The notes beneath the pieces are model-generated. The model was not told where the DNA came from, made no database searches, and worked only from the letters and a program-made list of their open reading frames with translations. 64,000 nt of DNA, taken from positions 10,273 to 74,272 of the IMG/VR virus record IMGVR_UViG_3300047494_000229. One strand, 5' to 3'. This stretch comes from a virus. Below, in pieces: positions 9,880 to 56,118 of this stretch. The position numbers and the translations under genes are program-made. Positions within the stretch are counted from its first letter, which is position 1. Each line of letters starts with the position of its first letter.

Positions 9880-11807
9880 GAATTTGACTCCCTGACCCTT
9901 AGCTCATTTACGCCATACCACCGTGCATCTGGGATTTCTTGCCACTGGATGCGGATTTCTTGTAAATCTGGATTGACACCTAAGACAATGCCGTGGAATT
10001 CATAAGCTTGTTTATTGATATCTGTATGAGCGATCGCCCCTTCAACTACCTTCCCTTCCTTCCAAGAATCCAACCAAGTTCGGGGATTGATGTACTTTTC
10101 TGTATCTGATGGAGGAATGGCTAGCCATTGTTCATCATTAAATACCAGTGATAATTCGCCCATCTTGACGTATTTGCAGCTTCTACCTCCTGATTGCCAG
10201 GATTGGGGCGTGAGTAGCCACGGGGAATCGTCATTAGGTATCAGGGATTGGTCAACGAAGTCAGAAGTCAGAGGGAAGAAGGAAGAAGGTCTTATTTCTT
10301 CTGACTTCTCGTGACCAAAGGGAGGAGGGGATTTAACCAAATTCATCCTTCTTCCTTCTTGGTCAAACTCTTTTTTGAGCAAAGTTATCAAGTTTCGCTC
10401 ATCCTGGGTAAGATTTATCCAGTAAGCTTTTTTAATCGCTTCATACTCAGAAGCGATCGCCCAAAACCCATTCCAATCACATCCACTCTGTAACTCTCGC
10501 CGAATATCACCAACAGCTTGGTGAACCATCTGATTTAACTCGACCTGGTAGGCGATCGCCTCCGGTGTCGGGTTGCATTTTAATAAGATGGCGGCGGCAG
10601 ATAACGCCTGTGTATCGTTAAGCGCTTTGGCTAAATTCCCCATAGCCAAAGCCATCAATCTCAGAGCCTCGGTCGCGTCAGACGGTGGGGCAGTGGCTAA
10701 CGCTCTGAGGTGCAATTCCGGCTCTAGATTCTCAACCATTCTGATAACTTCGGCGTTAACTGCTTTCTGCGCCTGCTTAGTAAGAGTATTGCCCCATTCC
10801 TGCACAGGGCGATTTTCTAGGGCCCGTTCTAGTTCTCCAATTCGTTGTTGCAATTGCTGGTTTTGAACTTCCAGTGTCCGCAATGATTCAAGCTCTTCAA
10901 TTTTTTGTTGAAGCTTGGCAACTTCCAGAGCTTTAGTAGAGGCGATCGCCTGGCTTGCTGCTAACTGTTCGTGGACTAGCTGTTGGGCCCTTTCCTCTGC
11001 CTCAGTCAGTAACCCGGCGCGAATATCAACCTCTAATCGCTGTATCTCCTCTTTGTGCTGGAGTTGGAGTTGGGCGATCGCTTCTTCATATTCTTTGGGA
11101 TATTTGCGCGGGGTAAATGGAGTACTGGAGGCATCTAAATCACTGATAGCAAACAACTCACTTTGTTCACTATCAGGAAAAACTATAAATAGATGTGTGT
11201 GGTTTGGGGGATCTCCGCTCACTATGCCAGCCTGCCCCTCTCTTGGATGTCCTTGTAATGAAATCTTGACTTCTGCTCCCGTCAGGAACAATTGTTCCTG
11301 AGATTTCTGAGATTTTGTTCTTTTGGGTAGGGGGACAACTTTCTCAGCAGCTTCTTTAAAGTCTTTGGCTGTAGGGTTAGGATTACTTTCCGAGGCAAGA
11401 CGCTCCCGTTCGGTCGCTAACGCTACCGCTATCGCCACCGTCTCTTGTAATTTTTCAGGAGATTTGACGAGCCTTAGTAGTGGCCTAGCGTGACTTTCTC
11501 TACTTACGACCCCATCAAGCTCAGTCCCTCGAAGAACCTCAGCCACCAGTCCAAAACCTAATAACTGATTGACTCGGCGATATCCGCCCCACTGAAATAA
11601 TTCTTTGTTGCAAAACTCCTCAAAAGTTTTGTATCCACCTTCCGTAAAGAGGCGATTGTCCCGCATCTTGCGGAGTTCCTCAGATAACTGTATCTCGAAT
11701 CGATCAATGGAAGTAAACGATTCTTTAATGACCTCTAACGCATACCGAAAAGCTGACTGCTGGGATGAAATTTGAGGATTGAAATCAACGACGTTTGCGT
11801 AAACCAT
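9876..11807 (-). CDS. Large DNA-binding/coiled-coil protein
   Basis: N-terminal GYKTFEEFC...ESHARPL helical domain typical of cyanobacterial mobile elements; KOW-like segment; long coiled coil. Confidence 0.6.
   Translation of the reverse strand: MVYANVVDFNPQISSQQSAFRYALEVIKESFTSIDRFEIQLSEELRKMRDNRLFTEGGYKTFEEFCNKELFQWGGYRRVNQLLGFGLVAEVLRGTELDGVVSRESHARPLLRLVKSPEKLQETVAIAVALATERERLASESNPNPTAKDFKEAAEKVVPLPKRTKSQKSQEQLFLTGAEVKISLQGHPREGQAGIVSGDPPNHTHLFIVFPDSEQSELFAISDLDASSTPFTPRKYPKEYEEAIAQLQLQHKEEIQRLEVDIRAGLLTEAEERAQQLVHEQLAASQAIASTKALEVAKLQQKIEELESLRTLEVQNQQLQQRIGELERALENRPVQEWGNTLTKQAQKAVNAEVIRMVENLEPELHLRALATAPPSDATEALRLMALAMGNLAKALNDTQALSAAAILLKCNPTPEAIAYQVELNQMVHQAVGDIRRELQSGCDWNGFWAIASEYEAIKKAYWINLTQDERNLITLLKKEFDQEGRRMNLVKSPPPFGHEKSEEIRPSSFFPLTSDFVDQSLIPNDDSPWLLTPQSWQSGGRSCKYVKMGELSLVFNDEQWLAIPPSDTEKYINPRTWLDSWKEGKVVEGAIAHTDINKQAYEFHGIVLGVNPDLQEIRIQWQEIPDARWYGVNELRVRESNS
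10248..10366. repeat. 111-bp STRR-type mini-element inserted in frame, flanked by TTGGTCAA direct repeats
   Basis: GGAAGAA/CCTTCTT heptamer arms; TTGGTCAA at 10248 and 10359. Confidence 0.65.
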
Positions 11808-15273: not shown

Positions 15274-16683
15274 ATGACATATCCAGCTTACACCCGCATT
15301 CAGTTAGAGTCCAAGAAATTAGTTGAGTTGAAGGCGATCGCCCTGCAACTCCATGCCGCTCCACTTAGCAATAAGCGCGTTACTGGCAATTGGGTAGAGG
15401 CAATTCTTGCCGCTCAACCTCAGCAAGTAAAGATGGCTGAGGTTGAGCAAGCTGATGATTACTTGTTCCACGATGACCCTCAACCAGTTAACTTACCTGA
15501 AGTTGGAGATTCACACTTCATAGGCGATTACCTACTGCGCTGCATTCAGGTTGGTGGCGAGTACGTCACAGTATGGGATGTTCTACTAAATGCAAGTCTT
15601 TCGATGGGCGAAATTCGCATGGGCTGGGATTGCCTCTGGAGCCATACATTGACCCTTGCTACATTCGCTACGCCACAAGAAGCGGTTGTTGATTTGCATG
15701 AATCAGCATTGGAATTTGCAAATTCCAATGCTCCATATGATCAAAATTTAGAAGAAGAATGTTTTTCTGAGTATCCTGATCTTGCAAACGAACGAGAAAA
15801 CGCAATGACGAAAATTATTTACCATCAAACAAAGCCAGGAACAGACTGCCCAGATGGCATCGCCTCAGCTTGGGTGTGTCATAAAGCTTTTCTAGATGCC
15901 GATATCGAAGGGTGTGTGCATCAGGGTGAGCTACCTGATGTTAGCGGGTATGATCGCCTAGTAATTGTTGATTTTTCTTTCTCTGCCCAAATTTTGGAAG
16001 AGTGGGCAAAAACTAAAAAAGTGATCGTGATTGATCACCACAAAACAGCAATGAACGACTTATCTCAATTAAGCGATCACGTACTTCAAAAATTTGATAT
16101 GGGTGAGTGCGGGGCAACTTTAGCTTGGAAGTATTTCTTCCCGAATGAGCCAATCCCCTCATTTTTAAGTTACGTCAAAGACCGCGATTTGTGGAATTTT
16201 GATTTACCTTTTTCGGAGGAGATTCACGAGGCGATCGCCTCCCTCAAATATCAGGCATATGCTGATATTGACAAGCAAAAACGCACTTTTGCAATCTTTG
16301 ACATGATTGCGGATATGAGTGCAGAACAGTTACAAACGGTGTTTGCACCTTGGGGATATCAATTATTAAAGCCCAAGCGCGAACGGATCGCCGAATTAGC
16401 GGTATCTGCTAGCCAACAACTTTTAGATGGCCACAAAATCATAGTGGTGGAAGTGCCAGAAAAAGAAGGGCGACTCATCAGCGATTTGTGTAGTTATCTA
16501 TATAGAAATAATCCCGAATCTGCCTTTGTAGTGGCTTATTACTACTCGGAATCAGATATTAATTTGAGCTTCCGCAGCGACAAAAAAGGCAGCAATTTTG
16601 ATGTATCAGCGATCGCCAAAAGCCTGGGAGGCGGCGGACATCACAACGCAGCAGGTGCATTAGTCCAAGTATTGCCTTGGTAA
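15274..16683 (+). CDS. DHH/DHHA1 phosphoesterase (NrnB-like) with an unrelated ~177-aa N-terminal extension; possible internal start at 15805
   Basis: IIYH..CPDG, IVDFS, IDHH, DRDLW, SFRS, GGGGH motifs. Confidence 0.85.
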   Translation: MTYPAYTRIQLESKKLVELKAIALQLHAAPLSNKRVTGNWVEAILAAQPQQVKMAEVEQADDYLFHDDPQPVNLPEVGDSHFIGDYLLRCIQVGGEYVTVWDVLLNASLSMGEIRMGWDCLWSHTLTLATFATPQEAVVDLHESALEFANSNAPYDQNLEEECFSEYPDLANERENAMTKIIYHQTKPGTDCPDGIASAWVCHKAFLDADIEGCVHQGELPDVSGYDRLVIVDFSFSAQILEEWAKTKKVIVIDHHKTAMNDLSQLSDHVLQKFDMGECGATLAWKYFFPNEPIPSFLSYVKDRDLWNFDLPFSEEIHEAIASLKYQAYADIDKQKRTFAIFDMIADMSAEQLQTVFAPWGYQLLKPKRERIAELAVSASQQLLDGHKIIVVEVPEKEGRLISDLCSYLYRNNPESAFVVAYYYSESDINLSFRSDKKGSNFDVSAIAKSLGGGGHHNAAGALVQVLPW

Positions 16684-17181: not shown

Positions 17182-17784
17182 TTGAATCGCAAAGTGAGTA
17201 CTATGCGATTCAACACGATGACCACAGAAACGAAGATAACACCAATGGCAAAATTTACCGACACTCCAATACTTACCGATCGCTTCTCTCAAGCTCTAGT
17301 TTTTGCAAGCCAAGCGCATTCTCATCAAGTTCGTAAGGGTAATAGAGAAGTGCCTTACGTTTCTCACCTGTTGGCTGTAGCCTCTTTAGTTTTGGAATCT
17401 GGAGGGGATGAAGATGAGGCGATCGCCGCCCTACTCCACGATGCGATTGAAGATATCCAAATTCATCCTGCATTAATTGATCAGAAGTTTGGTTGTTTTG
17501 TTCTTGGGTTTGTCCAAGAACTAACCGAAGACAAGTCTTTGCCTAAGCCAGAACGCAAAGCCGCTTATGTTAAGTCAATTCTTTCAATGTCGGAATCGGC
17601 GCTGAGAATCAGTATCGCCGACAAGCTCCACAATATCCGATGCTACAGCATAAACCCTCAATTGTGGGGGCAAGAGCAACATGAATTTTATGGAGCCTTG
17701 CTCGACAATTACGAACAACGCGAACTCGAAGGCGTTGAAGAACAACTAGTTGAGATGAATTTGCTGTTTGAGCAATTATCTTGA
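17182..17784 (+). CDS. HD-domain (p)ppGpp hydrolase-like protein (small alarmone hydrolase/Mesh1 type)
   Basis: AH..QVRKG...PYVSH, AALLHDAIED, ADKLHN. Confidence 0.85.
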   Translation: MNRKVSTMRFNTMTTETKITPMAKFTDTPILTDRFSQALVFASQAHSHQVRKGNREVPYVSHLLAVASLVLESGGDEDEAIAALLHDAIEDIQIHPALIDQKFGCFVLGFVQELTEDKSLPKPERKAAYVKSILSMSESALRISIADKLHNIRCYSINPQLWGQEQHEFYGALLDNYEQRELEGVEEQLVEMNLLFEQLS

Positions 17785-18168: not shown

Positions 18169-18888
18169 ATGATCACAGAAAATATCAGAGACGAATTGCG
18201 GCGCATTCATGTTGAACTCAAAAAACCTTTCCCTGCGAACTTACACGAGTTCAGAGAGTTACCTGGCGGTAAAAAATGGGTATTTCTGCGATGGCAGACT
18301 ATCCGTGAAAGGTTGGATGAAGTTGCCCCAGAGTGGATATCTGATTATTCAGAAGTTCAGTATCTTAATAATGATGCCATTTGTCGATGCGGCATCACAA
18401 TATTAGGAATTCGGAAAGAGGCGATCGCTTCTGTTCCAATCTCAATTACTAGCAGTGGTGGTAAAGAAATGAGTCGCGGTAGTGCAGCCGATAGGCTAGC
18501 AGCGGAAGCATTGAAGAATACCGCAGAGGCTTGGGGCGTAGGGCGGTATCTAGACGATCAAGTTTTCACCATCCGTTACCTTTGGGATCGGATGCACGAA
18601 CTTGATGACGCGGCGTGTGGAGAGGTTCGCCGTCTTTCCGAGCAGTACAAACTTGGGATAAAAGCTGCTACTAAACCAGCTTCACTGGTTAAACCTCAAG
18701 CTCCCAGAATTGACCGAAATTCTCTGATGGCTCAAAGTGATTGCCTGATTGCTGGACTGTTATGGACTCCGGCTCAAGGCAAAGAATACCTTGAGAAAAA
18801 TTATGGGAAGGGGGGGCGATCGCTCCTAACTGATGCAGAATTATTAGATTTTATTGGCAAGCTTCAAAGGATGGGTGCTAGTGTCTAA
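18169..18888 (+). CDS. Rad52/Rad22-family single-strand annealing protein (Sak-like)
   Basis: LKKPF, ERLDEV.P.W, AEALKNTAEAWGVGRYL. Confidence 0.8.
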   Translation: MITENIRDELRRIHVELKKPFPANLHEFRELPGGKKWVFLRWQTIRERLDEVAPEWISDYSEVQYLNNDAICRCGITILGIRKEAIASVPISITSSGGKEMSRGSAADRLAAEALKNTAEAWGVGRYLDDQVFTIRYLWDRMHELDDAACGEVRRLSEQYKLGIKAATKPASLVKPQAPRIDRNSLMAQSDCLIAGLLWTPAQGKEYLEKNYGKGGRSLLTDAELLDFIGKLQRMGASV

Positions 18889-19270: not shown

Positions 19271-20341
19271 ATGCAATCGCTTGGGTATCTCATGCAAGTA
19301 TCAACTTTTAAAATTGGCTCCATTGCCTCTGGTATGGGGATGCATCTGCACGGGTTAAAAAAGATTGGTGGGGTTCCCGTGTGGGCGATTGAATGCGATG
19401 AGGCGATCACCCGTTGTTACCAGCAAAACCATCCAGAGTCCCGCATTATTTGTAATAAAGTCCAAGATGTGGCGATTGATGATTTAGAAGATATCGATTG
19501 CCTCACAGTTACACTCAGCTGTAAAAATGCCTCAATTAGTCGAGGTGCTGATTGGGGTGAGACTGAGCAAGATACAGCAGCAGCAACGGCAGCGGCGAAT
19601 ATTCTTCGGGGTAAGCTACCAAAGTTCTTTTTGCTAGAAAATGTCTGGAGATATCGCACATTTGAATCTTTCCGCATTTTCAAGTCTGCACTGGCTGAAT
19701 GCGGCTACTATTTCCGTTACTACAAACTTAATTGCAAAGATTGGGGCGTGGCCCAATCACGCGATCGCCTCTATGGAGTTGGCGTAAGACACGGAGCATT
19801 TTGGGACATCACTGAGCCTTCACTTCCTATCTTGGGATGGTATGAGGCGATCGCTGATATGATTCCAGAATTGCCTCTTGTCAAGCTTGCACCTTGGCAG
19901 ATAAAGAAGTTTCCATGTCTGGACTCTACTTGTTTAATCCCCGACCATTCCAACTGGACAAGCCTTGTTTCTGTTGCTCAACCTGCACTAACGGTAAGAG
20001 CGGGGCATCAATCATTCAAAGCATTGATTAAACACGCTGGGGGCGGTCGGGACAATGATCGCCTCTACCACTCTGACGAACCATCATTTACGATTCGGGC
20101 GCTAGGAAGAAGCGCAGATCACCATTCAAAATTGGCGGATGCGATTATAGGGGATAGAGTCGTTGCAGTCACTCCCCGCGCTTGTCTACGCTTCTTTGGG
20201 GACAAGGAAACAGCAGATAGTATTTGGTTGCCTCCTACCAAGTCACTGGCTATGGAGGTAGTGGGGAATGGGGCATCATGGGTGATGTTTGAGGCATTGG
20301 GGCGATCGCTATTTTCGACCCCAAACTGTCGGGGTACGTAG
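19271..20341 (+). CDS. C5-cytosine DNA methyltransferase, atypical
   Basis: ASGMG (motif I), ENV (VI), QSRDR (VIII), VGNG (X); motif IV reads TLSC rather than PPC. Confidence 0.8.
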   Translation: MQSLGYLMQVSTFKIGSIASGMGMHLHGLKKIGGVPVWAIECDEAITRCYQQNHPESRIICNKVQDVAIDDLEDIDCLTVTLSCKNASISRGADWGETEQDTAAATAAANILRGKLPKFFLLENVWRYRTFESFRIFKSALAECGYYFRYYKLNCKDWGVAQSRDRLYGVGVRHGAFWDITEPSLPILGWYEAIADMIPELPLVKLAPWQIKKFPCLDSTCLIPDHSNWTSLVSVAQPALTVRAGHQSFKALIKHAGGGRDNDRLYHSDEPSFTIRALGRSADHHSKLADAIIGDRVVAVTPRACLRFFGDKETADSIWLPPTKSLAMEVVGNGASWVMFEALGRSLFSTPNCRGT

Positions 20342-20488
20342 TTTCCATTACTCACGATCCAGAATACGAACTGGGCTTAGTTTTGAACGATTGAAGAATT
20401 ACACTGAATCGATCACTCTTCTAGATAATTGGTGGCTAATTTATTCAATTGAGGAAAAATTTACGCCGAATTTGTAAGTGTGACAGTT

Positions 20489-24633: not shown

Positions 24634-25352
24634 AACCATTGAAAATAACTGCCGTAATGGGAAGTGCGATCGCCTGCTACGACTCCTATTCTCCAAGTTT
24701 AGATTCGCTCCTTGAGTGGCTAATACTGGATAAATTAAACCTCACTTCTCCCAATCCCACACCGGAACAAGTAGAAGCGACGCGCCCCATAGTTGACCGA
24801 GAGATGCCATTAGCCAAAGGCGAAGTTATGGGTGAATGGTATTGGCAGGTTTCTTCACCCTGCTACCGCATTGTGAGCGAATATACAGATAGATACCGCA
24901 AGCGCTGGCAGCCAGGAATTGACAGTCCTCCTCCAGCGTGGGGAAAACGTAAGGCTAAATGGTCAACTTCTGAAGGGGCAGAGAAGAATTACGATCTGCC
25001 TTTATATTGTCGTAATACTCCGGCAATTAATTGGTATGCGGTGGGGGATAGGGAGGCGATCGCCCAACTCCTACAAAACTGTACCCATATTGGCAAGAAG
25101 CGATCTTATGGCAATGGACAGGTTTTGCGATGGCAAGTTGAACCAATAAAAGAAGACTGGCATCTGTGGCGTGATGATAAACTTATGCGTCCTATGCCAT
25201 ACAGGTTGTTATATTCAGATCCGCGAATTTTGCAAAATGAACCTGTAATGATGAATTGGGGATGGCGTCCGCCTGCGTGGTTGCCTAGCAATAAAGAAGT
25301 GTGTGTAATGCCAAAGGGGAGTGTATGCCACTTAACTACGGCACAGGTTTGA
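24630..25352 (+). CDS. csf3: Type IV CRISPR Cas5-like subunit Csf3 (likely start MKPLKITA at 24630)
   Basis: PLKITA, LDSLL, WYAVGD, IGKKRSYGNGQV, RP.P, RPPAW. Confidence 0.88.
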   Translation: MKPLKITAVMGSAIACYDSYSPSLDSLLEWLILDKLNLTSPNPTPEQVEATRPIVDREMPLAKGEVMGEWYWQVSSPCYRIVSEYTDRYRKRWQPGIDSPPPAWGKRKAKWSTSEGAEKNYDLPLYCRNTPAINWYAVGDREAIAQLLQNCTHIGKKRSYGNGQVLRWQVEPIKEDWHLWRDDKLMRPMPYRLLYSDPRILQNEPVMMNWGWRPPAWLPSNKEVCVMPKGSVCHLTTAQV

Positions 25353-26074
25353 CCGCGCCTTGGATGAAGAAAAAAGTAGATAGGGCGATCGCTTGTATTG
25401 AAGACTGGGTAAGTAAGTGTGATCGCCTCTGCTATACCTCAACTAGTGGTGGCAAGGATTCCTTGGTAACTGCTCACCTCATCCGCCACGTTTACCCTAG
25501 CTGCCCAATGGTGTGGATCAATCAAGGGCATTTAGCAGAGTGGCCTGACTGCATTGAACTATTGCAGTTTTTAAAAACTCAGGGATGGAACATCGTTGAA
25601 CTATGTCCAGTGCGCGATTTGTGGCATTTGTACCTCGACTTGGGCATTCCATTGGAAGGGAAAATGGACACCAAAGCAGATAAAATAATAAACCAACGGT
25701 TAATGTACGACCCGTTGGAAGAGTACCAAGAGCTTAACAATATCAAGGGTTACGCTTGGGGTATTCGTAAAGATGAAAGTCGCAACCGCGCTTTTTACTT
25801 GCGGAAGTGGGGAGAATTACACCAACTGAAAAACGGACTGTGGTGTTGTTCGCCTGTGGCATTTTGGACGGTACAAGATATCTGGCTATATATTGACCAG
25901 CAGAAATTGCCTTATCCTGCCATGTATGACCGCGATCGCCTCACCATCCGCAACGGGCCACCCATTGGTACAACCGGGGTAAACTGGGGGCGGTTGGCGG
26001 AACTCAGAAAACACCACCCTGATTTGTGGCAGCAGTTTGTAGAGAAATTTCCAGAGGTGCGAGATTATGGCTGA
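25325..26074 (+). CDS. cysH: CysH-like PAPS reductase family protein associated with type IV-B
   Basis: SGGKDS PP-loop, GIRKDESRNR, P...WT..DIW.YI....LPY. Confidence 0.88.
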   Translation: MPLNYGTGLTAPWMKKKVDRAIACIEDWVSKCDRLCYTSTSGGKDSLVTAHLIRHVYPSCPMVWINQGHLAEWPDCIELLQFLKTQGWNIVELCPVRDLWHLYLDLGIPLEGKMDTKADKIINQRLMYDPLEEYQELNNIKGYAWGIRKDESRNRAFYLRKWGELHQLKNGLWCCSPVAFWTVQDIWLYIDQQKLPYPAMYDRDRLTIRNGPPIGTTGVNWGRLAELRKHHPDLWQQFVEKFPEVRDYG

Positions 26075-29325: not shown

Positions 29326-29733
29326 TTGAGCGCACGAATTCCTATGAAATTTATTTTATCTGTTTGTCTAACTGAAGATGTTCCAGCTATTAATTACATT
29401 CTTGAAAAGAGTACTTACGTATTAGGGCGGCACTCTAGCTGCGACATTCTAATTCTCGATCGGTTCCTCTCAAGGTATCACTGTACCTTGATTCTGATGG
29501 AACCAAGTAGTACTTGCAAACAGCCTTGTTACATAATCTATGATGGGCTGCTTCTATCGCAAGAGCGAAGTCGAAACGGGATTTGGGTAAATGGAGAAAG
29601 GGTAAAGGTGTTGCGGGAATTAAACCATCAAGACGTAATTACTTTTGGCTCTCAGAGTTTCCCCAAAGCAATTTTCATAATAGATTCTATTGACAAAGAC
29701 AAGGGGACTATCCCGAATGAATTTGAAAATTAG
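29326..29733 (+). CDS. FHA domain protein
   Basis: LGRHSSCDI, SRYHC, SRNGIWVNG, DVITFG. Confidence 0.88.
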   Translation: MSARIPMKFILSVCLTEDVPAINYILEKSTYVLGRHSSCDILILDRFLSRYHCTLILMEPSSTCKQPCYIIYDGLLLSQERSRNGIWVNGERVKVLRELNHQDVITFGSQSFPKAIFIIDSIDKDKGTIPNEFEN

Positions 29734-30187: not shown

Positions 30188-30259
30188 TTTTGCTCAGGTC
30201 ATGAGGGCGATCGCGTGTCTAGTATAGCAGCGACATGATTTTGGGTAATGGGTAAAAAT

Positions 30260-30418
30260 ATGCACATCAATGTTTCTACTATTCGCCAAGCTTTTCAGCT
30301 AGCTGCCACTTTTATTCTGGATATCGAAACACTTTTTGGTGGTTCGGCTCCTGCACCTAGTGGCAACCTGCAAGCGCCAGAAGCATCGGCTAGCGCTAGT
30401 TCAACTGCCGCTCAGTAA
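30260..30418 (+). CDS. 52-aa Ala/Ser-rich protein
   Basis: Manual translation MHINVSTIRQAFQLAATFILDIETLFGGSAPAPSG...AAQ. Confidence 0.35.
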   Translation: MHINVSTIRQAFQLAATFILDIETLFGGSAPAPSGNLQAPEASASASSTAAQ

Positions 30419-30608
30419 TCCTTAATCCTTGTTGATGGGCGATCGCTGCTAGGCGTTCTATGTCATTAGCGATCGCCACTCCTACTTGTGCAGAAGTGAT
30501 TGGCAAGATTTCTATAGCCAAAATCTTCGTATTCTACCCACCTGATAGATTTGCTTTTAAGGACTTTTTCTCTAGGTAGTAGAGACTTTTCAGTTAATAA
30601 GCTATAAA

Positions 30609-31505
30609 CTACATTCTTCTTTGAATTGCGGCATTAATCACTTCTTGACTACTAGAAGAACTGGTGATGTTTGCCAAATTCAGGAATAAGTTTACTTTAT
30701 CCCTAGCCTGCTCAAATGTTAGTCTTGGCGGATTATTGATCACCAACTTGACTAAATCTGAGTACCAGTATCGGGGCGATCGCAAAGTCAACCCCGCATC
30801 AATAACTTTCTCGCGCCACCCATCTTCGGGCAGGATTTCTTGGTCTTCTTTCCCCAAATACCAATGTTTGCTAACTTGGGGCATCCAAGACCCCATATTC
30901 GCATCACAATACCTTAACCCTTTCACATCCATGAAATCATATCCCATCGCCTTGATTTCTCTAAGAAACGACAATTCAGAAACCCCAGCAATATAAGGAT
31001 GGCAGATGGGAAGAGTTAAAACTCCGTAGTCCTTTGCCAACTGCAAAGTTTTGAGGTGCTGTTTAACCGTAAACCGTTCAATAGGCGGTTCATTTCCAGT
31101 GATGCCCAAGACAAGGGCAAAATTGGGAATTTTGGCAAGCCTCGACATAATGCGATCACTAATTGTCCATTTGCTGACACAAGTAATGAGCTTGGCGATA
31201 GGCGAAACTTTCTCAACCCAATGCCACAAATACTCATCAAGTACTGGGAAAAATGGATCTGTGATGGCTGTGAATCCAACGATATCCCCAGCCAGGATAC
31301 CCCACGGAAAACTATAAAAACGTTCTTGCTCTTGGGGATTGTCCTTAATGAAGGGAGAAACATTAACAAAGCTACAAGCCTTGTTAATGCCCGCAATTGG
31401 GTTCTTATTCCACACCTCCCGACGGGTGTCATGCTCTGTTATAAAGCAATATTTGCAAGCCACGGGGCAAGCAGATTTGCCGACTTCAAAACGGAAGGAT
31501 TGCAT
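30609..31505 (-). CDS. Radical SAM protein, SPL/photolyase-like fold
   Basis: CPVACKYCF (CX3CX2C), TDPF, SKW, P.IAG. Confidence 0.85.
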   Translation of the reverse strand: MQSFRFEVGKSACPVACKYCFITEHDTRREVWNKNPIAGINKACSFVNVSPFIKDNPQEQERFYSFPWGILAGDIVGFTAITDPFFPVLDEYLWHWVEKVSPIAKLITCVSKWTISDRIMSRLAKIPNFALVLGITGNEPPIERFTVKQHLKTLQLAKDYGVLTLPICHPYIAGVSELSFLREIKAMGYDFMDVKGLRYCDANMGSWMPQVSKHWYLGKEDQEILPEDGWREKVIDAGLTLRSPRYWYSDLVKLVINNPPRLTFEQARDKVNLFLNLANITSSSSSQEVINAAIQRRM

Positions 31506-32007
31506 CTAATATCTCCGAAAATACTGAATCTTGATCAAGTTCACCATTGATGGTGATTAATTTGTTTTTTTGTTGCCAAAACTCTAGTAACGGAGGAAGG
31601 CGATCGCTCTCTAGCAATAGTCTTTCCGCGCTACTTAGTTCATCTCCTCTAGCTCGAATTTGACAACGTAATACTGCAATATTTGGGGAAATTTTAAGAT
31701 AGATAACAAAATCTACCTCTTGAACGACTTTGGCTTGATTGATATTGCGAGGAAAGCCATCGATTATCCAAGAATTTTTAGCACATATTGGCTTGGCTAT
31801 TTCAATGGCGATCGCGTCTGGCAACGGAAGCCAAGTTTTACTATCGCCCCAATACGAACTAATTCTTTGGCTGAGTTCGGTTTTATTTTGAAATTCCGCT
31901 CTCACTAAATCCCCCATACTATAATGGAGGACTGTATAAAACTCAGATAGATTCTTACCCTGAGTGCTTTTTCCAGCACTGGGAAGACCTAAGAGAACTA
32001 TCTTCAT
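31486..32007 (-). CDS. Adenylate kinase-like nucleoside monophosphate kinase
   Basis: GLPSAGKSTQ P-loop, SMGDLVR, IIDGFPRNINQA. Confidence 0.88.
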   Translation of the reverse strand: MKIVLLGLPSAGKSTQGKNLSEFYTVLHYSMGDLVRAEFQNKTELSQRISSYWGDSKTWLPLPDAIAIEIAKPICAKNSWIIDGFPRNINQAKVVQEVDFVIYLKISPNIAVLRCQIRARGDELSSAERLLLESDRLPPLLEFWQQKNKLITINGELDQDSVFSEILDAILPF

Positions 32008-32171
32008 TTGTTTTTTGTAGTTAAACTAGCAACGGCGCTAGCGACCTCTGGATTTTTTGAAATCGTTTCCTTGTCTCCCTGACATTGACTACATCCGCAA
32101 TCAGCACCGTGATCTTGCACGTTTGCGATCGCTTCACAAACCTGCTTAATTTGATTAACTTCTTTTGACAT
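32004..32171 (-). CDS. 55-aa HxxxCxCxxC microprotein B (not in ORF track)
   Basis: MSKEVNQIKQVCEAIANVQDHGADCGCSQCQGDKETISKNPEVASAVASLTTKNK; GGAG RBS; ATGA overlap with the kinase. Confidence 0.85.
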   Translation of the reverse strand: MSKEVNQIKQVCEAIANVQDHGADCGCSQCQGDKETISKNPEVASAVASLTTKNK

Positions 32172-33366
32172 TAGCTATCTCCAAAATTTGTACAGGACTC
32201 ATACCCACTGTTACTTGTAGTTCGGGAGGCAAGACATCCTGAAACATCGACAAAAAACAGTAGGCGCATTTTAAGCATTTATTCTTAGGGATATACTCAC
32301 TCCAAACCATCCAGCTATTGACTGCATATAAATCATTGGCTAGCCCAAAGCGCGGGTGTAGCCGAATGTTAGAATTTTCACCTGGTGGAATTGCGGGGTC
32401 TGTTGCTAGCATTCCCCCGGTGATAAACCGAGCAAAGCTCATCTCGCCCCAAGAGGGCATTTTGTTATCCCAAGTGCGAATATTGATGTAAGGCATCCCC
32501 ATGTCGGGAGCTTTTGGGCAGTTTGTGCAGCACAAGCTACACTGCGATCGCACTTCTACCGCGCATTTTTGATATCTTTCTGATGCTGTATGCACTTCAA
32601 CTTGAAAGCCCAAATAACGCAGCAATTCCACACTATGCGGAACTGGCTGCACAAATTGAGCAGTTCCTGCACAAGAATCAGAAATAGGACAAGAATTGCA
32701 ATCAACAAAGTTTGGCGCGTTGTAATACGGCGAGAGCGATCGCTTTTTTTCTGACAACGCCGTAACCGCGCACTGGGTTCTAGTCCAATATGGGACTTTT
32801 AGCCATTGGGCTAATTCCCGCATATATCCTGATGTTGCCTGCGGGGTAATTTTGAGTGTTCGCATCCACTCTTGGTTGTCAGGTGCAGAGATACCCTGCA
32901 TCCCAGCGTCTCTAACAACTTGTTCATCACCACGGAAGCCACTTGAGACAACCGCGTGGCATCCCGCATCAACCGAACGTGTAAACATCTCTTTGATAAC
33001 CCGTGGATCATCGTTGAGAGTGTGAATAATTGGGCGAATATAGGCGATCGCCTTTGCTCCCGACTCACGCGCAGCACTCAAAGTCTTGTACCTTGATTCA
33101 GTTGGTGCTGGCTCCATCTCCTTGGGAAGGTGGGAGATGGAAGCAAATACAAACAAGTTTAAATTAGCTGCCCAATATTTCAAGCGCTCTCGCCACCAAG
33201 GGCTAGACAAATCGCCTTTGGTAATCAGGGCAACTGGCCCCGTATGGTGATCGCTCACCAATTGATTCAATTTAGCTGCTGTACTTTCCCTCAAAATAGA
33301 GGGATCAGCCAAATTATTTACACTGACGGGCAAATCTCTGAGCAATCTTAGCCATTCTTCCTGCAT
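32155..33366 (-). CDS. Radical SAM-like Fe-S protein, apparently circularly permuted
   Basis: SPL-like core (LADP, ITKG, SIS...EP...R..TL, RPII...ND) with no N-terminal Cys triad; CLKCAYCF near the C-terminus; extra Cys clusters. Confidence 0.65.
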   Translation of the reverse strand: MQEEWLRLLRDLPVSVNNLADPSILRESTAAKLNQLVSDHHTGPVALITKGDLSSPWWRERLKYWAANLNLFVFASISHLPKEMEPAPTESRYKTLSAARESGAKAIAYIRPIIHTLNDDPRVIKEMFTRSVDAGCHAVVSSGFRGDEQVVRDAGMQGISAPDNQEWMRTLKITPQATSGYMRELAQWLKVPYWTRTQCAVTALSEKKRSLSPYYNAPNFVDCNSCPISDSCAGTAQFVQPVPHSVELLRYLGFQVEVHTASERYQKCAVEVRSQCSLCCTNCPKAPDMGMPYINIRTWDNKMPSWGEMSFARFITGGMLATDPAIPPGENSNIRLHPRFGLANDLYAVNSWMVWSEYIPKNKCLKCAYCFLSMFQDVLPPELQVTVGMSPVQILEIANVKRS

Positions 33367-33815
33367 AATTTAAAAGACTCCTTTGGATATACAAGACAAT
33401 GTGGGTCGCTGAAGGGGATGAACGGATTGTGCAGGCTCTCAACCACCAATCCCTCATTCCCTGATTTAAATGTGTGGAGTATCCCCCTTGGCATCCACAC
33501 CCGGATACCGGGATGGAGAGGATAATGCAGAATATTTTTGTCTCTATAACAGACAAACTCGCCACTACCTTCAAGGACAGTTACTCTGCGATCGCTCTTG
33601 GGATGAGTGTGGAGGCGATTATCTTCTGTCGATTCCGGGGGGAATCGGACAATTAGCTGGCCCAACTCTCCCCACACTGCCTTGATTAGCAGGGCTTCCA
33701 TGTATTCTTCGTAGGCTACCCAATCGCCTTGAGGGATTGGCGCACAAGAAAGTTCAACTTTTTCAACGCCGCCACGCTTCCAATTTTGACGGCATTGTTC
33801 AGCAAAATTAATCAA
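33348..33815 (-). CDS. Cupin domain protein
   Basis: LHTHP...VTVLEGSG and MPRGILHTF. Confidence 0.85.
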   Translation of the reverse strand: MINFAEQCRQNWKRGGVEKVELSCAPIPQGDWVAYEEYMEALLIKAVWGELGQLIVRFPPESTEDNRLHTHPKSDRRVTVLEGSGEFVCYRDKNILHYPLHPGIRVWMPRGILHTFKSGNEGLVVESLHNPFIPFSDPHCLVYPKESFKLCRKNG

Positions 33816-33872
33816 AATTTACTCCTTTGACCGCAAATGGAATAGATTTTTCTCTATTAATTAAATCCACTC

Positions 33873-34124
33873 TTATCTCCAAACAAAATAAGTTTTCTTA
33901 ATATCATCATCACTTCCCTCCACGAATTCTTCTTGTCTCTTGCTTGAGAAGCTGTGCAGACTTAACAACAGCGTCCCGATCACACCTTTTCTGTGCTGCT
34001 GCTGAAAACTGCGCCACTGAAGGCGGTTTTGAACTCTTTCTCTAGCATCAATAAGGTTATTTGTATCTTGGTAGTTCATTTCTGCTTCTACTTCAGCAAG
34101 TAAATCAGTAAAAAAATCAGACAT
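33873..34124 (-). CDS. Hypothetical protein
   Basis: Operon-packed ORF. Confidence 0.5.
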   Translation of the reverse strand: MSDFFTDLLAEVEAEMNYQDTNNLIDARERVQNRLQWRSFQQQHRKGVIGTLLLSLHSFSSKRQEEFVEGSDDDIKKTYFVWR

Positions 34125-34557
34125 TACGTACTCCTTCGCTTAATAATTTAAACCCTAACTTCAATCGCTCTTCCCATTTCTTGGTAGCGTGGTTATCCCA
34201 GACTGGGTTGCTTTTACTCTTAATCCAGTTTTCGCTTTTGTGACTGCGATCATGGCAAGCTTTACAAAGGGGGAAAACAGTAACACCAGGGCGATCACTC
34301 CCATACTTTGTGTGATGAACTTCAGTTGAATTTCGCTTCAGGCAACAACAGCAAAAACCTTTAGTGGACTTATGGGTGATCGCGCACAACTGTTTATATT
34401 TTTCTAAATCCCCATAGCGATCGTCCCAGCTTAATCCAATCCCAGTTCTTTTAGTAGATACTCTAGCCCTCGGTCGTTTAGTTGTTTTCCTGTTAGCTCT
34501 TCCCACTTTGCCCTTACTTGTTCTCGGTTTGGCAATTGAAGTTGTGCGTTTAGCCAT
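34117..34557 (-). CDS. HNH endonuclease-like protein
   Basis: CCCC...EVHH..YG...PLCKACHDRSH. Confidence 0.75.
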   Translation of the reverse strand: MAKRTTSIAKPRTSKGKVGRANRKTTKRPRARVSTKRTGIGLSWDDRYGDLEKYKQLCAITHKSTKGFCCCCLKRNSTEVHHTKYGSDRPGVTVFPLCKACHDRSHKSENWIKSKSNPVWDNHATKKWEERLKLGFKLLSEGVRNV

Positions 34558-49981: not shown

Positions 49982-51607
49982 TCAAACAACAATTTTTGCA
50001 TCAAATCTATTAAAAGATAAATTATTTGTTATTGTCTCTATTGCCGAAAAAATGGCAGTAGAGGCAATACCAGCCATGATGTTATATCCAACATCAGTGA
50101 AGTGAACCAAATCACTGCTACTGTAGTAAATGCTATTAGTACAAGATGCATATAAACCCATAGGAATATTATCTCCAATGTTGGCCACTGCATCAGCAAA
50201 AGTTTTCCAGTTAGTTAATATTAGTTGATTTACTGCAAGCCTATTAGTTTCTTGATTCGCAGGAGTCCCAGTATTCTGCCTTGGTGTTAAAGTACAAATA
50301 ACTACTTTATATCCTTTCGCTTTTCTTCCTAAACAATAAGTAACTAAATTATTATAAGCTTGGGTAATAGTCGCCCCAAAATATAAATCGTTTATGCCCT
50401 CCCAGCAAACTACAATATTATAATTTTTTGATGGATCATAAGCCCCATCAATTTGTGAATTTGCATCTGAAATCATTTGGACAGTAGTTTGTCCAGAAAC
50501 ACCGAAATTAGATGAGATTACACTATATTGAGAATTAATAAGCGATTGAACACAATTTATGGAATAAGGCTGAGAACCGCCAACTCCAGCAGTTAAAGAA
50601 TTGCCATCAAATACAATATTTAAAGTGACAAGAGGAGCAAAAACGGTAATAGATATTGATGAAGGATTTGTTAATCCCCCATTATTAATGCAAGAAATTA
50701 CTGTGGTTCCTACATTATTTGAAGTATAGGTTACTATTACTGAAGAAATTGATGGAGTTAACTGGACATTATTGCTGCTAAAAGTCCCGCCAGCCCCATT
50801 ATCAGAAAAAGTAAAACTAATTGTATTAGTTAACTCAGTATTGTTGGGTAGTGATAAAGTTAAATTTAAAGATGATCCAACACTAGTACTATTAGCATTT
50901 GTAGAAAAATTATACGTTGTTGGAAGTGAAGGAGGTTGGTATGCATAAATTTGACATTCCGCAATAGTCCCATATTGTCCTAAAGGAGGTTTTAATTGAA
51001 TATATCTTACAGATGACCCACTATTACTAAAAACAATTCCATAATCACCATTGCTATCGGATAATAAAGTTCCTCCTATATTTTCAGAAACAATAGGAGA
51101 TGATAAATCTGAATTTTGACTCCAATAAACATCAGCATTTTCTATTCTAGTGTCATAGGCATTAGAGATAGAATAGAACCTAGTTTCAAAAACTAAAAAA
51201 TTAGCTCCTAAATCAACCTGCCAAGTAGACCTAACTGTATCAGTATTACCACTCCAAAAAGTAGCATAATTTCCATCTATTGCTTTATCTGGAGTATAAC
51301 TACTACTATAAGAATCACTAGCAGACGCTACCCCTATTAAAGCAATATTGACGGCAACATATAAAGGCTGTGTACTGGAAGTAGAGGGATCTGTAATAGT
51401 TAACTCAGAACTTATAGAGCCAATAGAAACAGTAATAGTAGCACTAGTATTAGTAGTAATATTTTGTGCTGTAATCATGTTTCCACTTTTACCAGTTAAG
51501 GTAAAAACTGGATTAGTTAAAAGCCAAAAAGTGCCTACACCTGTTAAGGTAATGACATTTCCAGAAGTATTGGCAATTACATAAGATTTGTTTAGAGAAA
51601 AAGTCAT
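49982..51607 (-). CDS. Tail-associated protein with discoidin (F5/8 type C) and SGNH/GDSL esterase domains
   Basis: ASASD...AIDGN..TFW...WQVDLG; FDGNSLTAG, GVSGQTT, GIND, DLVH. Confidence 0.8.
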   Translation of the reverse strand: MTFSLNKSYVIANTSGNVITLTGVGTFWLLTNPVFTLTGKSGNMITAQNITTNTSATITVSIGSISSELTITDPSTSSTQPLYVAVNIALIGVASASDSYSSSYTPDKAIDGNYATFWSGNTDTVRSTWQVDLGANFLVFETRFYSISNAYDTRIENADVYWSQNSDLSSPIVSENIGGTLLSDSNGDYGIVFSNSGSSVRYIQLKPPLGQYGTIAECQIYAYQPPSLPTTYNFSTNANSTSVGSSLNLTLSLPNNTELTNTISFTFSDNGAGGTFSSNNVQLTPSISSVIVTYTSNNVGTTVISCINNGGLTNPSSISITVFAPLVTLNIVFDGNSLTAGVGGSQPYSINCVQSLINSQYSVISSNFGVSGQTTVQMISDANSQIDGAYDPSKNYNIVVCWEGINDLYFGATITQAYNNLVTYCLGRKAKGYKVVICTLTPRQNTGTPANQETNRLAVNQLILTNWKTFADAVANIGDNIPMGLYASCTNSIYYSSSDLVHFTDVGYNIMAGIASTAIFSAIETITNNLSFNRFDAKIVV

Positions 51608-55176: not shown

Positions 55177-56118
55177 CTAGATTACGTTTTGAAACAGGAA
55201 TCCTGCGCCATCAAAGGTGATCACCGGATCTCTCTCCGCTTTGATCGGGAAGTACCAAGTTTCCTCGTTTTCACCCCAATAGGCAGGGAGGGCGATCGGG
55301 AAACCTTTTAATGTGTAGGTATAACCAAAGCTAGGGGTGATCATATTTGGCGCAGGGCTAGCGTTTACATACCCCAGCCAAAACTCATCCGCCAAAATAT
55401 CAACCTTGTTGCCCGACGCTGGATCTATAACAAGAGCAGTTGCAATGCCCAATGTTTCTAAGTTGAAATACCGCTTGAGCATATCAAGCGTTAGGGAATT
55501 GTCATTGGTGTACTTGAACTGATCCCTAATCTCAGGATGCACATCAAGGGCATTAAAAACACCAGCGCTAAAGATTGCCGTATTTGGATACTTCCCGATC
55601 GCCTGTCGGATTTTTTCTTTGCCCGCGAGGACTGCTGTTTTTGGGGAGGAGGAAGCACTCAACCATTGGGAAGTCCCACTCAAAACTACTTGGAAATCAC
55701 TTGTATACTGAGTTGGATCGCTAAGTAACGTTAATTGGTCATACTCAAGCCGCAAATCGATTGTTTGCTTGGCCAAATCAACCGTCATTAGCTGCAAATC
55801 AATTGGCACTTGATTAGCTTGTACCTCCTCTAAAAATTCAATCGGTAACATCCCCTCAATCTTGTCTTGGTAGAGGGTATAGCGATCGCTGTCATAGGTT
55901 AAAGCGCGGCGTTTAGTACGAGCGCCTGGGGCACGGCGAGTATCAATTAGTGCAAAGGCATCATCCCCGAATCTAATAATCCTTCCCGATCGCACATTAA
56001 CAGGAACAATGGGAAATGCTAAATTCCCAACAAAATCGCCTTGAGAGGGCCCTAGTTGTACCTGCTTAGTAAGAATCGGGTCGATGACCCGTGCCTGATC
56101 TAGATTTAAAATTGCCAT
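55177..56118 (-). CDS. Major capsid protein
   Basis: RVIDPILT, FPIVPV, RRAPGA, IG.YPN, PSFGYTY, AGFLFQNV. Confidence 0.85.
   Translation of the reverse strand: MAILNLDQARVIDPILTKQVQLGPSQGDFVGNLAFPIVPVNVRSGRIIRFGDDAFALIDTRRAPGARTKRRALTYDSDRYTLYQDKIEGMLPIEFLEEVQANQVPIDLQLMTVDLAKQTIDLRLEYDQLTLLSDPTQYTSDFQVVLSGTSQWLSASSSPKTAVLAGKEKIRQAIGKYPNTAIFSAGVFNALDVHPEIRDQFKYTNDNSLTLDMLKRYFNLETLGIATALVIDPASGNKVDILADEFWLGYVNASPAPNMITPSFGYTYTLKGFPIALPAYWGENEETWYFPIKAERDPVITFDGAGFLFQNVI

Follow-up and report, generated by a model that had tools for sequence, protein, structure and literature searches.

A phage operon pairing a circularly permuted radical SAM protein with a second radical SAM protein: a candidate nucleotide-modifying cassette

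What might a phage make with two radical S-adenosylmethionine (SAM) proteins, a cupin and a nucleotide kinase encoded side by side? The question is raised by five genes at positions 30609–33815 of a 64,000 nucleotide (nt) stretch of viral DNA (the window; positions 10,273 to 74,272 of IMG/VR virus record IMGVR_UViG_3300047494_000229), which a first-pass annotation had read as an operon for the production of a modified nucleotide. Comparison of the encoded proteins and of their neighbourhoods revealed that one of the two radical SAM proteins, designated R403, is a circularly permuted member of its superfamily, and that the conserved unit is the pair that it forms with the other, R298. A pathway is proposed below in which this pair would act on a nucleotide.

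All five genes lie on the minus strand. They comprise the cupin gene (155 amino acids (aa); 33348–33815), the gene for R403 (403 aa; 32155–33366, overlapping the cupin gene by 19 nt), an open reading frame (ORF) of 55 aa (32004–32171, 17 nt overlap with the R403 gene), the gene for an Adk-like kinase with a short LID (173 aa; 31486–32007, 4 nt ATGA overlap with the 55-aa ORF) and the gene for R298 (298 aa; 30609–31505, 20 nt overlap with the kinase gene). Overlaps of 4–20 nt throughout are typical of translational coupling within an operon; the first-pass annotation had described five overlapping minus-strand genes at these positions and an operon, and both descriptions were upheld, the genes forming one tightly coupled operon. 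A minus-strand gene block starting at about 37.7 kb has the five ORFs at its downstream end. When positions 30200–34400 were scanned for promoters and terminators, sites were no more numerous than in shuffled sequence. Two contigs from RNA libraries (X9 and X10, probably duplicate filings of a single data set) covered only 30251–30409 and 30573–30820, which is insufficient for a claim about transcription.

Sequence searches gave little indication of what the two radical SAM proteins are. No match to the operon or to either of their genes was found among GenBank phages by blastn and tblastn, no sequence relative of R403 or R298 was found in the PDB by phmmer or profile search, and the viral structures of BFVD yielded no match (best E 8e-4, TM-score 0.35). 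In PHROGs, R403 had only weak matches to families of unknown function (phrog_13321, E 0.015; phrog_17566, E 0.35), as did the 55-aa ORF (phrog_1708, E 0.16), and there was nothing for the cupin or R298. Neither R403 nor R298 reached the threshold of any curated family in Pfam, NCBIfam or PHROGs.

R403 had no Pfam match at all and carries no cysteine motif at its N-terminus, where canonical members of the radical SAM superfamily have their three cysteines. Its AlphaFold2 (AF2) model, with a predicted local distance difference test score (pLDDT) of 94.4, nevertheless found radical SAM enzymes almost exclusively among its top matches in structure searches, which were run for the AF2 models with the VIA-align aligner. 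The best match (Z 12.5) was a domain of pyruvate formate-lyase activating enzyme (PFL-AE; 155 residues aligned, root mean square deviation 2.4), and further matches to NifB, PFL-AE, LIAS (human lipoyl synthase), SkfB and spore photoproduct lyase (SPL) lay at Z 10–11.7, with SkfB and SuiB at 10.3–10.6, lipoyl synthases at 10.5–10.7 and SPL at 10.0. Residues 5–197 of R403 align to the part of PFL-AE, SPL, viperin and LIAS that follows the cluster loop (Z 10–12.5), and residue ~5 aligns 25–35 residues past the cluster motif of the solved enzymes (at residue 60 of PFL-AE, 127 of SPL, 112 of viperin and 147 of SkfB). Because these alignments start past the cluster motif, the N-terminus of R403 begins at about β2 of the barrel, the core of which is homologous to that of radical SAM enzymes, as judged from the structure matches and from profile comparison with the R298 family.

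The β1/cluster-loop/α1 unit is found instead at the opposite end of the protein, at residues ~341–403 (32158–32346, minus strand). It contains the motif C364-x2-C367-x-Y-C370-F, an unusual CX2CX2C (32257–32277, minus strand), about 35 residues before the C-terminus, preceded by a predicted β-strand (residues 353–357) and followed by a short helix. C364, C367 and C370 are invariant in an 18-row alignment, and the motif was the sole cysteine motif of the radical SAM type in these 18 and then in 82 aligned homologues; 86 full-length homologues have the same architecture as R403.

Relatives in which the unit occupies the usual place allowed the rearrangement to be followed. In P0207, a non-permuted relative of R403 from an archaeal (DPANN-type) metagenome-assembled genome, the sequence CFDCGYC at residues 23–29 leads straight into a core, 'PVAVNN...HTGPVGIITK', that in R403 makes up the N-terminus, and no C-terminal unit is present. 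When 1.84 billion representatives were searched with a profile, 529 relatives emerged, which were classified with the earlier homologues by the position of the motif: CX2CX2C was C-terminal in 101 proteins and N-terminal in 19, and CX3CX2C was C-terminal in 15 proteins and in the canonical N-terminal position in 53. The 19 sister proteins have an N-terminal CxxCxYC and no C-terminal unit, and their N-terminal unit stops exactly where the N-terminus of R403 starts; this unit matched the C-terminal unit of the R403 family over 63 columns (hhalign 98.0 %, E 2e-13). A tree built on the shared core joined the permuted group and the group with N-terminal CX2CX2C in one clade, apart from canonical radical SAM proteins (SH-aLRT 99). 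The hypothesis that all permuted proteins arose once was not rejected, the constrained tree being the better one (p 0.73 in the approximately unbiased test). R403 is a circularly permuted radical SAM protein with β1 and the cluster loop at its C-terminus, not a canonical member of the superfamily.

The 15 proteins with a C-terminal CX3CX2C constitute a second, apparently permuted family of ~310 aa (P0254, P0274, P0262, P0286, P0301 and others), in which a canonical motif stands near the C-terminus; the family shares a homologous C-terminal unit with R403 (hhalign 95.8 %).

Between the barrel core and the relocated unit, R403 has a cysteine-rich middle region (32518–32772, minus strand) with C199, C223, C226 and C232 as one set and C268, C276, C280 and C283 as another. 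All eight are invariant across 82 sequences, the non-permuted archaeal homologue included, and the conservation of two sets of four suggests that they would be the ligands of two auxiliary iron–sulfur (Fe-S) clusters.

The partner protein, R298, is a highly divergent radical SAM protein of canonical topology. Its motif, CPVACKYC (CX3CX2C), lies at residues 13–20 (31446–31469); C13, C17 and C20, together with Y19, are invariant in 75 R298 sequences, which share no other invariant cysteine, and the C-terminal RR is also invariant. R298 scored 15.1 bits against Pfam PF04055, under the cut-off of 29.5; a few of its homologues have a precomputed match to that family. With the AF2 model of R298 (pLDDT 95.9), 36 chains were found at Z of at least 8; those listed were nearly all radical SAM enzymes, with alignments that began at the cluster loop, and NifB, PFL-AE, SPL, SkfB and viperin fell at Z 10.5–11.4 (SPL 11.3, viperin 10.5). 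On these matches R298 has the partial (β/α)6 TIM-barrel fold of the superfamily. Between R298 and its counterpart in a ~92 %-identical phage contig (X3), 27 of the 40 listed differences were at third codon positions, a bias consistent with purifying selection. The two radical SAM proteins had been described as related, and at the profile level this is so: residues 8–177 of R403 matched residues 70–262 of R298 (hhalign 95.8 %, E 7e-9), with a separate local match of R403 365–376 to R298 15–26. When the R403 profile was artificially permuted the match became co-linear over 174 columns, and its score was not raised. BLASTP, by contrast, finds no similarity between the two.

Which of the five genes belong together was examined in 74 related loci on contigs of genomic, viral and metagenomic origin, the ORFs of which were clustered. 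R403 adjoins R298 in all 44 loci with a readable flank (duplicates removed), and in each of the 11 loci in which only R298 was found it lies within ~500 nt of a contig end. The conserved unit is the radical SAM pair R403 and R298 and not the five-gene set: the expectation that all five genes would be conserved as neighbours held for the pair, but the small ORF is a singleton, the cupin alternates with a desulfurase and the kinase is optional. A prediction of a complex between R403 and R298 scored 0.00, which gives no verdict and speaks neither for nor against binding.

Gene fusions in the related loci connect these components further. A desulfurase is fused to permuted R403 in P0214 and P0221, a non-permuted R403-like domain to a second, CX3CX2C radical SAM domain in P0218, Adk to R298 in P0093 and P0096 and, in the more distant P0256, a MazG pyrophosphohydrolase to a radical SAM domain. 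The fusions connect R403 with the desulfurase, R298 with the kinase, and one radical SAM protein with the other. The archaeal non-permuted homologue is flanked by an AAA_17 kinase and a NUDIX hydrolase, and with the fusions this places nucleotide-handling enzymes repeatedly beside this clade. The earlier proposal of a modified-nucleotide operon therefore survives in part, its link to nucleotides being backed by the recurrent Adk-like kinases, the Adk–R298 fusions and the MazG, NUDIX and AAA_17 partners of relatives, although the five genes are not one set.

The identity of the third partner was compared in 24 loci with at least 1.8 kb of sequence on both sides. A desulfurase accompanied R403 and R298 in 17 of them and a cupin in five, with the window as a sixth instance of the latter; cupin and desulfurase never occurred together (0/24), the two radical SAM proteins never occurred without one or the other (0/24), and an R403-like gene stood alone in two. 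The cupin is thus a lineage-specific third partner that alternates strictly with the desulfurase. By hidden Markov model (HMM) it is a marginal cupin (Cupin_1 22.2 against a cut-off of 22; Cupin_2 23.8 against 27.2, E 3.6e-5), and only generic cupins matched it in the ESM Atlas and the PDB. Six homologues keep EDNxLHxHPxSDR, MPRGxLHTF and HNPFxP, which together are typical of metal-binding cupins, and on these motifs the protein probably binds a metal. The desulfurase of the relatives is a class-V aminotransferase with its best match in the SufS family (~260 bits, under the cut-off of 475); its pyridoxal phosphate-binding lysine (SxHK) and the cysteine of RAGxxC are invariant in 27/27 sequences.

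The kinase is the most readily classified of the five products. It scored 72.5 bits against PF00406 (cut-off 26.8; E 5e-20) and has the P-loop GLPSAGKST, so the initial assignment as an Adk-like kinase was correct, and it fell under the NCBIfam equivalog cut-offs of the adk and UMP-CMP kinase models. Adk-like genes were present in ~17 of 58 non-redundant loci, mostly between the R403 and R298 genes, and in the closest viral relatives the Adk gene has decayed to 62-aa remnants.

The 55-aa ORF fared differently. It carries CxCxxC, and the first-pass annotation had counted this microprotein among the components of the pathway, which did not hold: the ORF forms a singleton cluster among the ORFs of related loci, and no tblastn match to it was found in 74 related loci (the window's own record excluded). 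Contig X3, which comes from another moss-metagenome study and spans the whole operon, has 15 nt in place of window positions 32014–32175 (160 nt), a replacement that removes the 55-aa ORF and joins the R403 gene directly to the kinase gene. Being a singleton that is deleted in a ~92 %-identical relative, the ORF lies outside the conserved system, and its status as a real gene is doubtful. It was rejected as a member of the pathway, and on the same two grounds as the precursor of a ribosomally synthesized and post-translationally modified peptide (RiPP), no co-conserved precursor peptide gene having been found.

Several other genes were seen beside the cassette in related loci. Csx3-like genes (a CRISPR ring-nuclease family) occur near it in 15 loci (for example L002 5946–7074, L003 11269–12982 and L010 6823–7257), with an adjacent P-loop gene in six of the 15, and may be anti-CRISPR genes; the window contains only a 25-aa remnant-like tblastn match to such a gene (20302–20376, E 3.6e-6). 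In the closest viral relatives (L010 11146–14133; L011–L013, L034 and L069) the cassette is directly upstream of a gene for a 1000–1350-aa portal protein fused to an inorganic pyrophosphatase (InPase) domain. A DUF3850 (ASCH-like) protein of 85–104 aa is encoded on the opposite strand just upstream of R403 in five loci (L001, L020–L022 and L049).

We put the chances at about even that the locus is the phage-borne variant of an uncharacterised mobile cassette for a nucleotide-modifying, probably sulfur-dependent pathway with two radical SAM enzymes. R403 and R298 would act in one pathway on a mononucleotide. R403 would hold its SAM cluster in the C-terminal loop and probably two further Fe-S clusters on the eight invariant cysteines, and R298, as an ancient paralogue of R403, would be a radical SAM enzyme with normal topology and one cluster. 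The Adk-like kinase would control the phosphorylation of the substrate or product, from nucleoside monophosphate (NMP) to diphosphate. In most relatives, a SufS-like desulfurase would feed sulfur to R403, replenishing or loading its auxiliary clusters; since the desulfurase is a partner of R403, the chemistry would most likely be a sulfur-dependent radical modification. In the phage lineage, a metal-binding cupin would take the place of the desulfurase and the SufS of the host may supply the sulfur, so that the cupin could provide either an extra tailoring step, host SufS being sufficient, or a chemical replacement of the desulfurase step. The product could serve in DNA modification, as an antagonistic analogue or in chemistry directed at tRNA or DNA.

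A number of points weigh against this pathway. The desulfurase might do no more than provide Fe-S clusters for enzymes rich in them, and no desulfurase was found in the phage record, which is 69 % complete, so that the link to sulfur is indirect here. The structure matches single out no nucleotide-acting radical SAM enzyme, viperin being tied with NifB, PFL-AE, SPL and SkfB. The kinase, which is absent from most loci and reduced to remnants in the closest viral relatives, is non-essential. The position of the C-terminal cysteine triad of R403 in three dimensions is one predicted from topology and homology, and the substrate, product and activity of R403 and R298 are likewise predictions.

The alternative that survives best, which we nevertheless consider unlikely, is that the radical SAM pair acts on a polynucleotide, either in DNA repair of the SPL type or in post-replicative modification of DNA (or tRNA), with the kinase only adjusting nucleotide pools. 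SPL and COG1533 'DNA repair photolyase' are the nearest named groups (these are JGI names, with weak Rv2578c and PA0069 matches), SPL is a structural match of both R298 and R403, and in the ESM Atlas the clusters nearest R298 are mostly viral and then 'SPL family radical SAM' (score 0.96). All scores against HMMs of the SPL type, however, are far under the family cut-offs, and in the structure matches SPL is tied with unrelated radical SAM enzymes. R403 and its relatives share with the SplB-like proteins PA0069 and Rv2578c a partial TIM-barrel radical SAM core of similar size and weak HMM similarity (R403 17.1 bits on NF038135 against a cut-off of 430, and relatives 23–48 bits against 360, with no match for R298); unlike them, R403 is permuted, has CX2CX2C and eight extra invariant cysteines, and is one half of an obligate pair that is accompanied by desulfurase, cupin or kinase. 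A self-contained cassette moving between phages and tiny-genome bacteria would suit a target found everywhere, DNA or tRNA for instance, and the phage also has a DNA methyltransferase and a PAPS-reductase/DndC-like gene, whereas the presence of kinase, MazG and NUDIX partners, together with the kinase fusions, favours mononucleotides, and no DNA-binding or transglycosylase partner is co-conserved across the loci.

A second alternative accepts a nucleotide product but would make it a toxic or chain-terminating analogue, in the manner of viperins or thionucleoside pathways, aimed at competing phages or at shutdown of the host and not at modification of the genome; we judge this distinctly unlikely. 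The pairing of a radical SAM enzyme with an NMP kinase mirrors that in prokaryotic viperins, in which the two are coupled or fused in mobile, defence-like neighbourhoods and which match the R298 model (Z 10.5), and that in the thmABC cluster (PMC12691670). Unlike viperins, the cassette has two radical SAM proteins, one with three predicted clusters, which exceeds the needs of viperin chemistry; most of its loci include a desulfurase, and no match to a viperin family HMM was obtained. In the thionucleoside routes, 4'-thiothymidine is made by a radical SAM enzyme, a nucleoside kinase and an NTPase, and AbmM uses its own Fe-S cluster as sulfur donor (PMC12691670). The ThmABC, AbmM and AbmG routes resemble the cassette in joining a radical SAM enzyme and a nucleoside or nucleotide kinase on a nucleotide, with sulfur from an Fe-S cluster, and AbmM (albomycin) is among the structure matches of R298 (Z 7.7); they differ in having one catalytic sulfur-inserting radical SAM enzyme, no desulfurase fusion and a place in bacterial antibiotic clusters (PMC12691670). 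An analogue would also agree with a temperate phage in which no polymerase was seen among the scanned ORFs, which argues against wholesale base replacement, and with the defence or counter-defence neighbourhoods suggested by Csx3-like genes and adjacent P-loop genes near the cassette (15 loci), but no self-resistance NTPase is conserved alongside the pair in the phage loci.

Maturation of a peptide, protein or cofactor, whether by a RiPP-type radical SAM enzyme with a second cluster-binding domain (SPASM or twitch) acting on the 55-aa ORF as precursor or by a LipA/BioB-like sulfur-inserting pair as an auxiliary metabolic gene, is very improbable, for although the small ORF has CxCxxC and is translationally coupled, SkfB, SuiB and lipoyl synthases match R403 and the desulfurase association fits insertion of sulfur into a cofactor, that ORF is deleted in a close relative with no small ORF co-conserved across the loci, the kinase fusions are left unexplained, and no LipA, BioB or LipS family HMM was matched.

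LipA, BioB, MiaB and LipS1/LipS2 do resemble the cassette in their extra conserved cysteine sets, probably in a reliance on mobilised sulfur and, for LipS1/LipS2, in the division of labour between two radical SAM proteins; the cassette differs from them in having no match to their family HMMs and in its nucleotide-enzyme partners, permuted topology and phage context. TIGR04470 of NCBIfam, 'radical SAM mobile pair protein A/B', is similar by name as a tandem radical SAM pair on mobile DNA, but R403 and R298 gave no match to it and the distant relative P0256 reached 24.8 bits against a cut-off of 410. No circularly permuted radical SAM protein, CX2CX2C radical SAM protein or phage cassette of radical SAM protein, desulfurase and kinase was found in the open-access literature searched, where no matching pathway was met either, in agreement with the first-pass annotation, in which the gene set was not recognized as a described pathway.

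A bolder version of the preferred nucleotide-modifying pathway, which we regard as something of a long shot, would have phages and tiny-genome bacteria share one route, in which a permuted three-cluster radical SAM enzyme would draw its sulfur directly from a dedicated desulfurase and, with the paralogue and an NMP kinase, yield a thio-modified nucleotide for non-canonical phage DNA or an analogue against competitors; in phages with oxygenic hosts, the cupin would then be an oxygen-tolerant stand-in for the step that supplies sulfur.

The source of the window is a virus record of 74,272 bp with an estimated completeness of 69 %. Its designation as phage was confirmed by the IMG/VR record itself together with a major head protein (55177–56118; phrog_1005, E 3e-67) and a large serine recombinase (1478–2842), and several further phage-only protein families are present; given the recombinase, the phage is temperate. 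Evidence on habitat consists only of moss metagenomes and a single close homologue from the bin of a Leptolyngbyaceae cyanobacterium. Neither a polymerase nor enzymes that deplete canonical deoxynucleoside triphosphates were found among the phage ORFs scanned, which mildly disfavours wholesale base replacement.

Other genes of the window are given for completeness. A PAPS-reductase/PP-loop (DndC-like) protein is encoded at 25301–26074 on the plus strand (PF01507, E 1.2e-14), ~4.5 kb from the cassette and on the opposite strand to it, and may give the phage a second enzyme related to sulfur or nucleotides. Plus-strand accessory genes at 15274–16683, 17182–17784, 18169–18888, 19271–20341 and 29326–29733 encode a DHH/DHHA1 phosphoesterase, an HD_4 domain protein, a Rad52-like protein, a DNA methyltransferase and an FHA-domain protein. 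Within the structural gene block, a 541-aa protein (49982–51607, minus strand) combines F5/8 type C (discoidin) and GDSL lipase/acylhydrolase domains and is probably a tail-fibre or host-surface enzyme.

The permuted radical SAM core represented by R403 is a natural, conserved family that numbers more than 100 sequences and can be compared with a non-permuted sister group, and it is relevant to how a barrel can be joined to its SAM-cluster loop. With two to four genes, the cassette is a compact and mobile unit that joins radical chemistry, the mobilisation of sulfur and nucleotide kinases, and the strict choice within it between desulfurase and cupin is a puzzle accessible to experiment. It is a tractable way into a nucleotide modification or analogue, possibly a new one, in the conflict between phages and their hosts.

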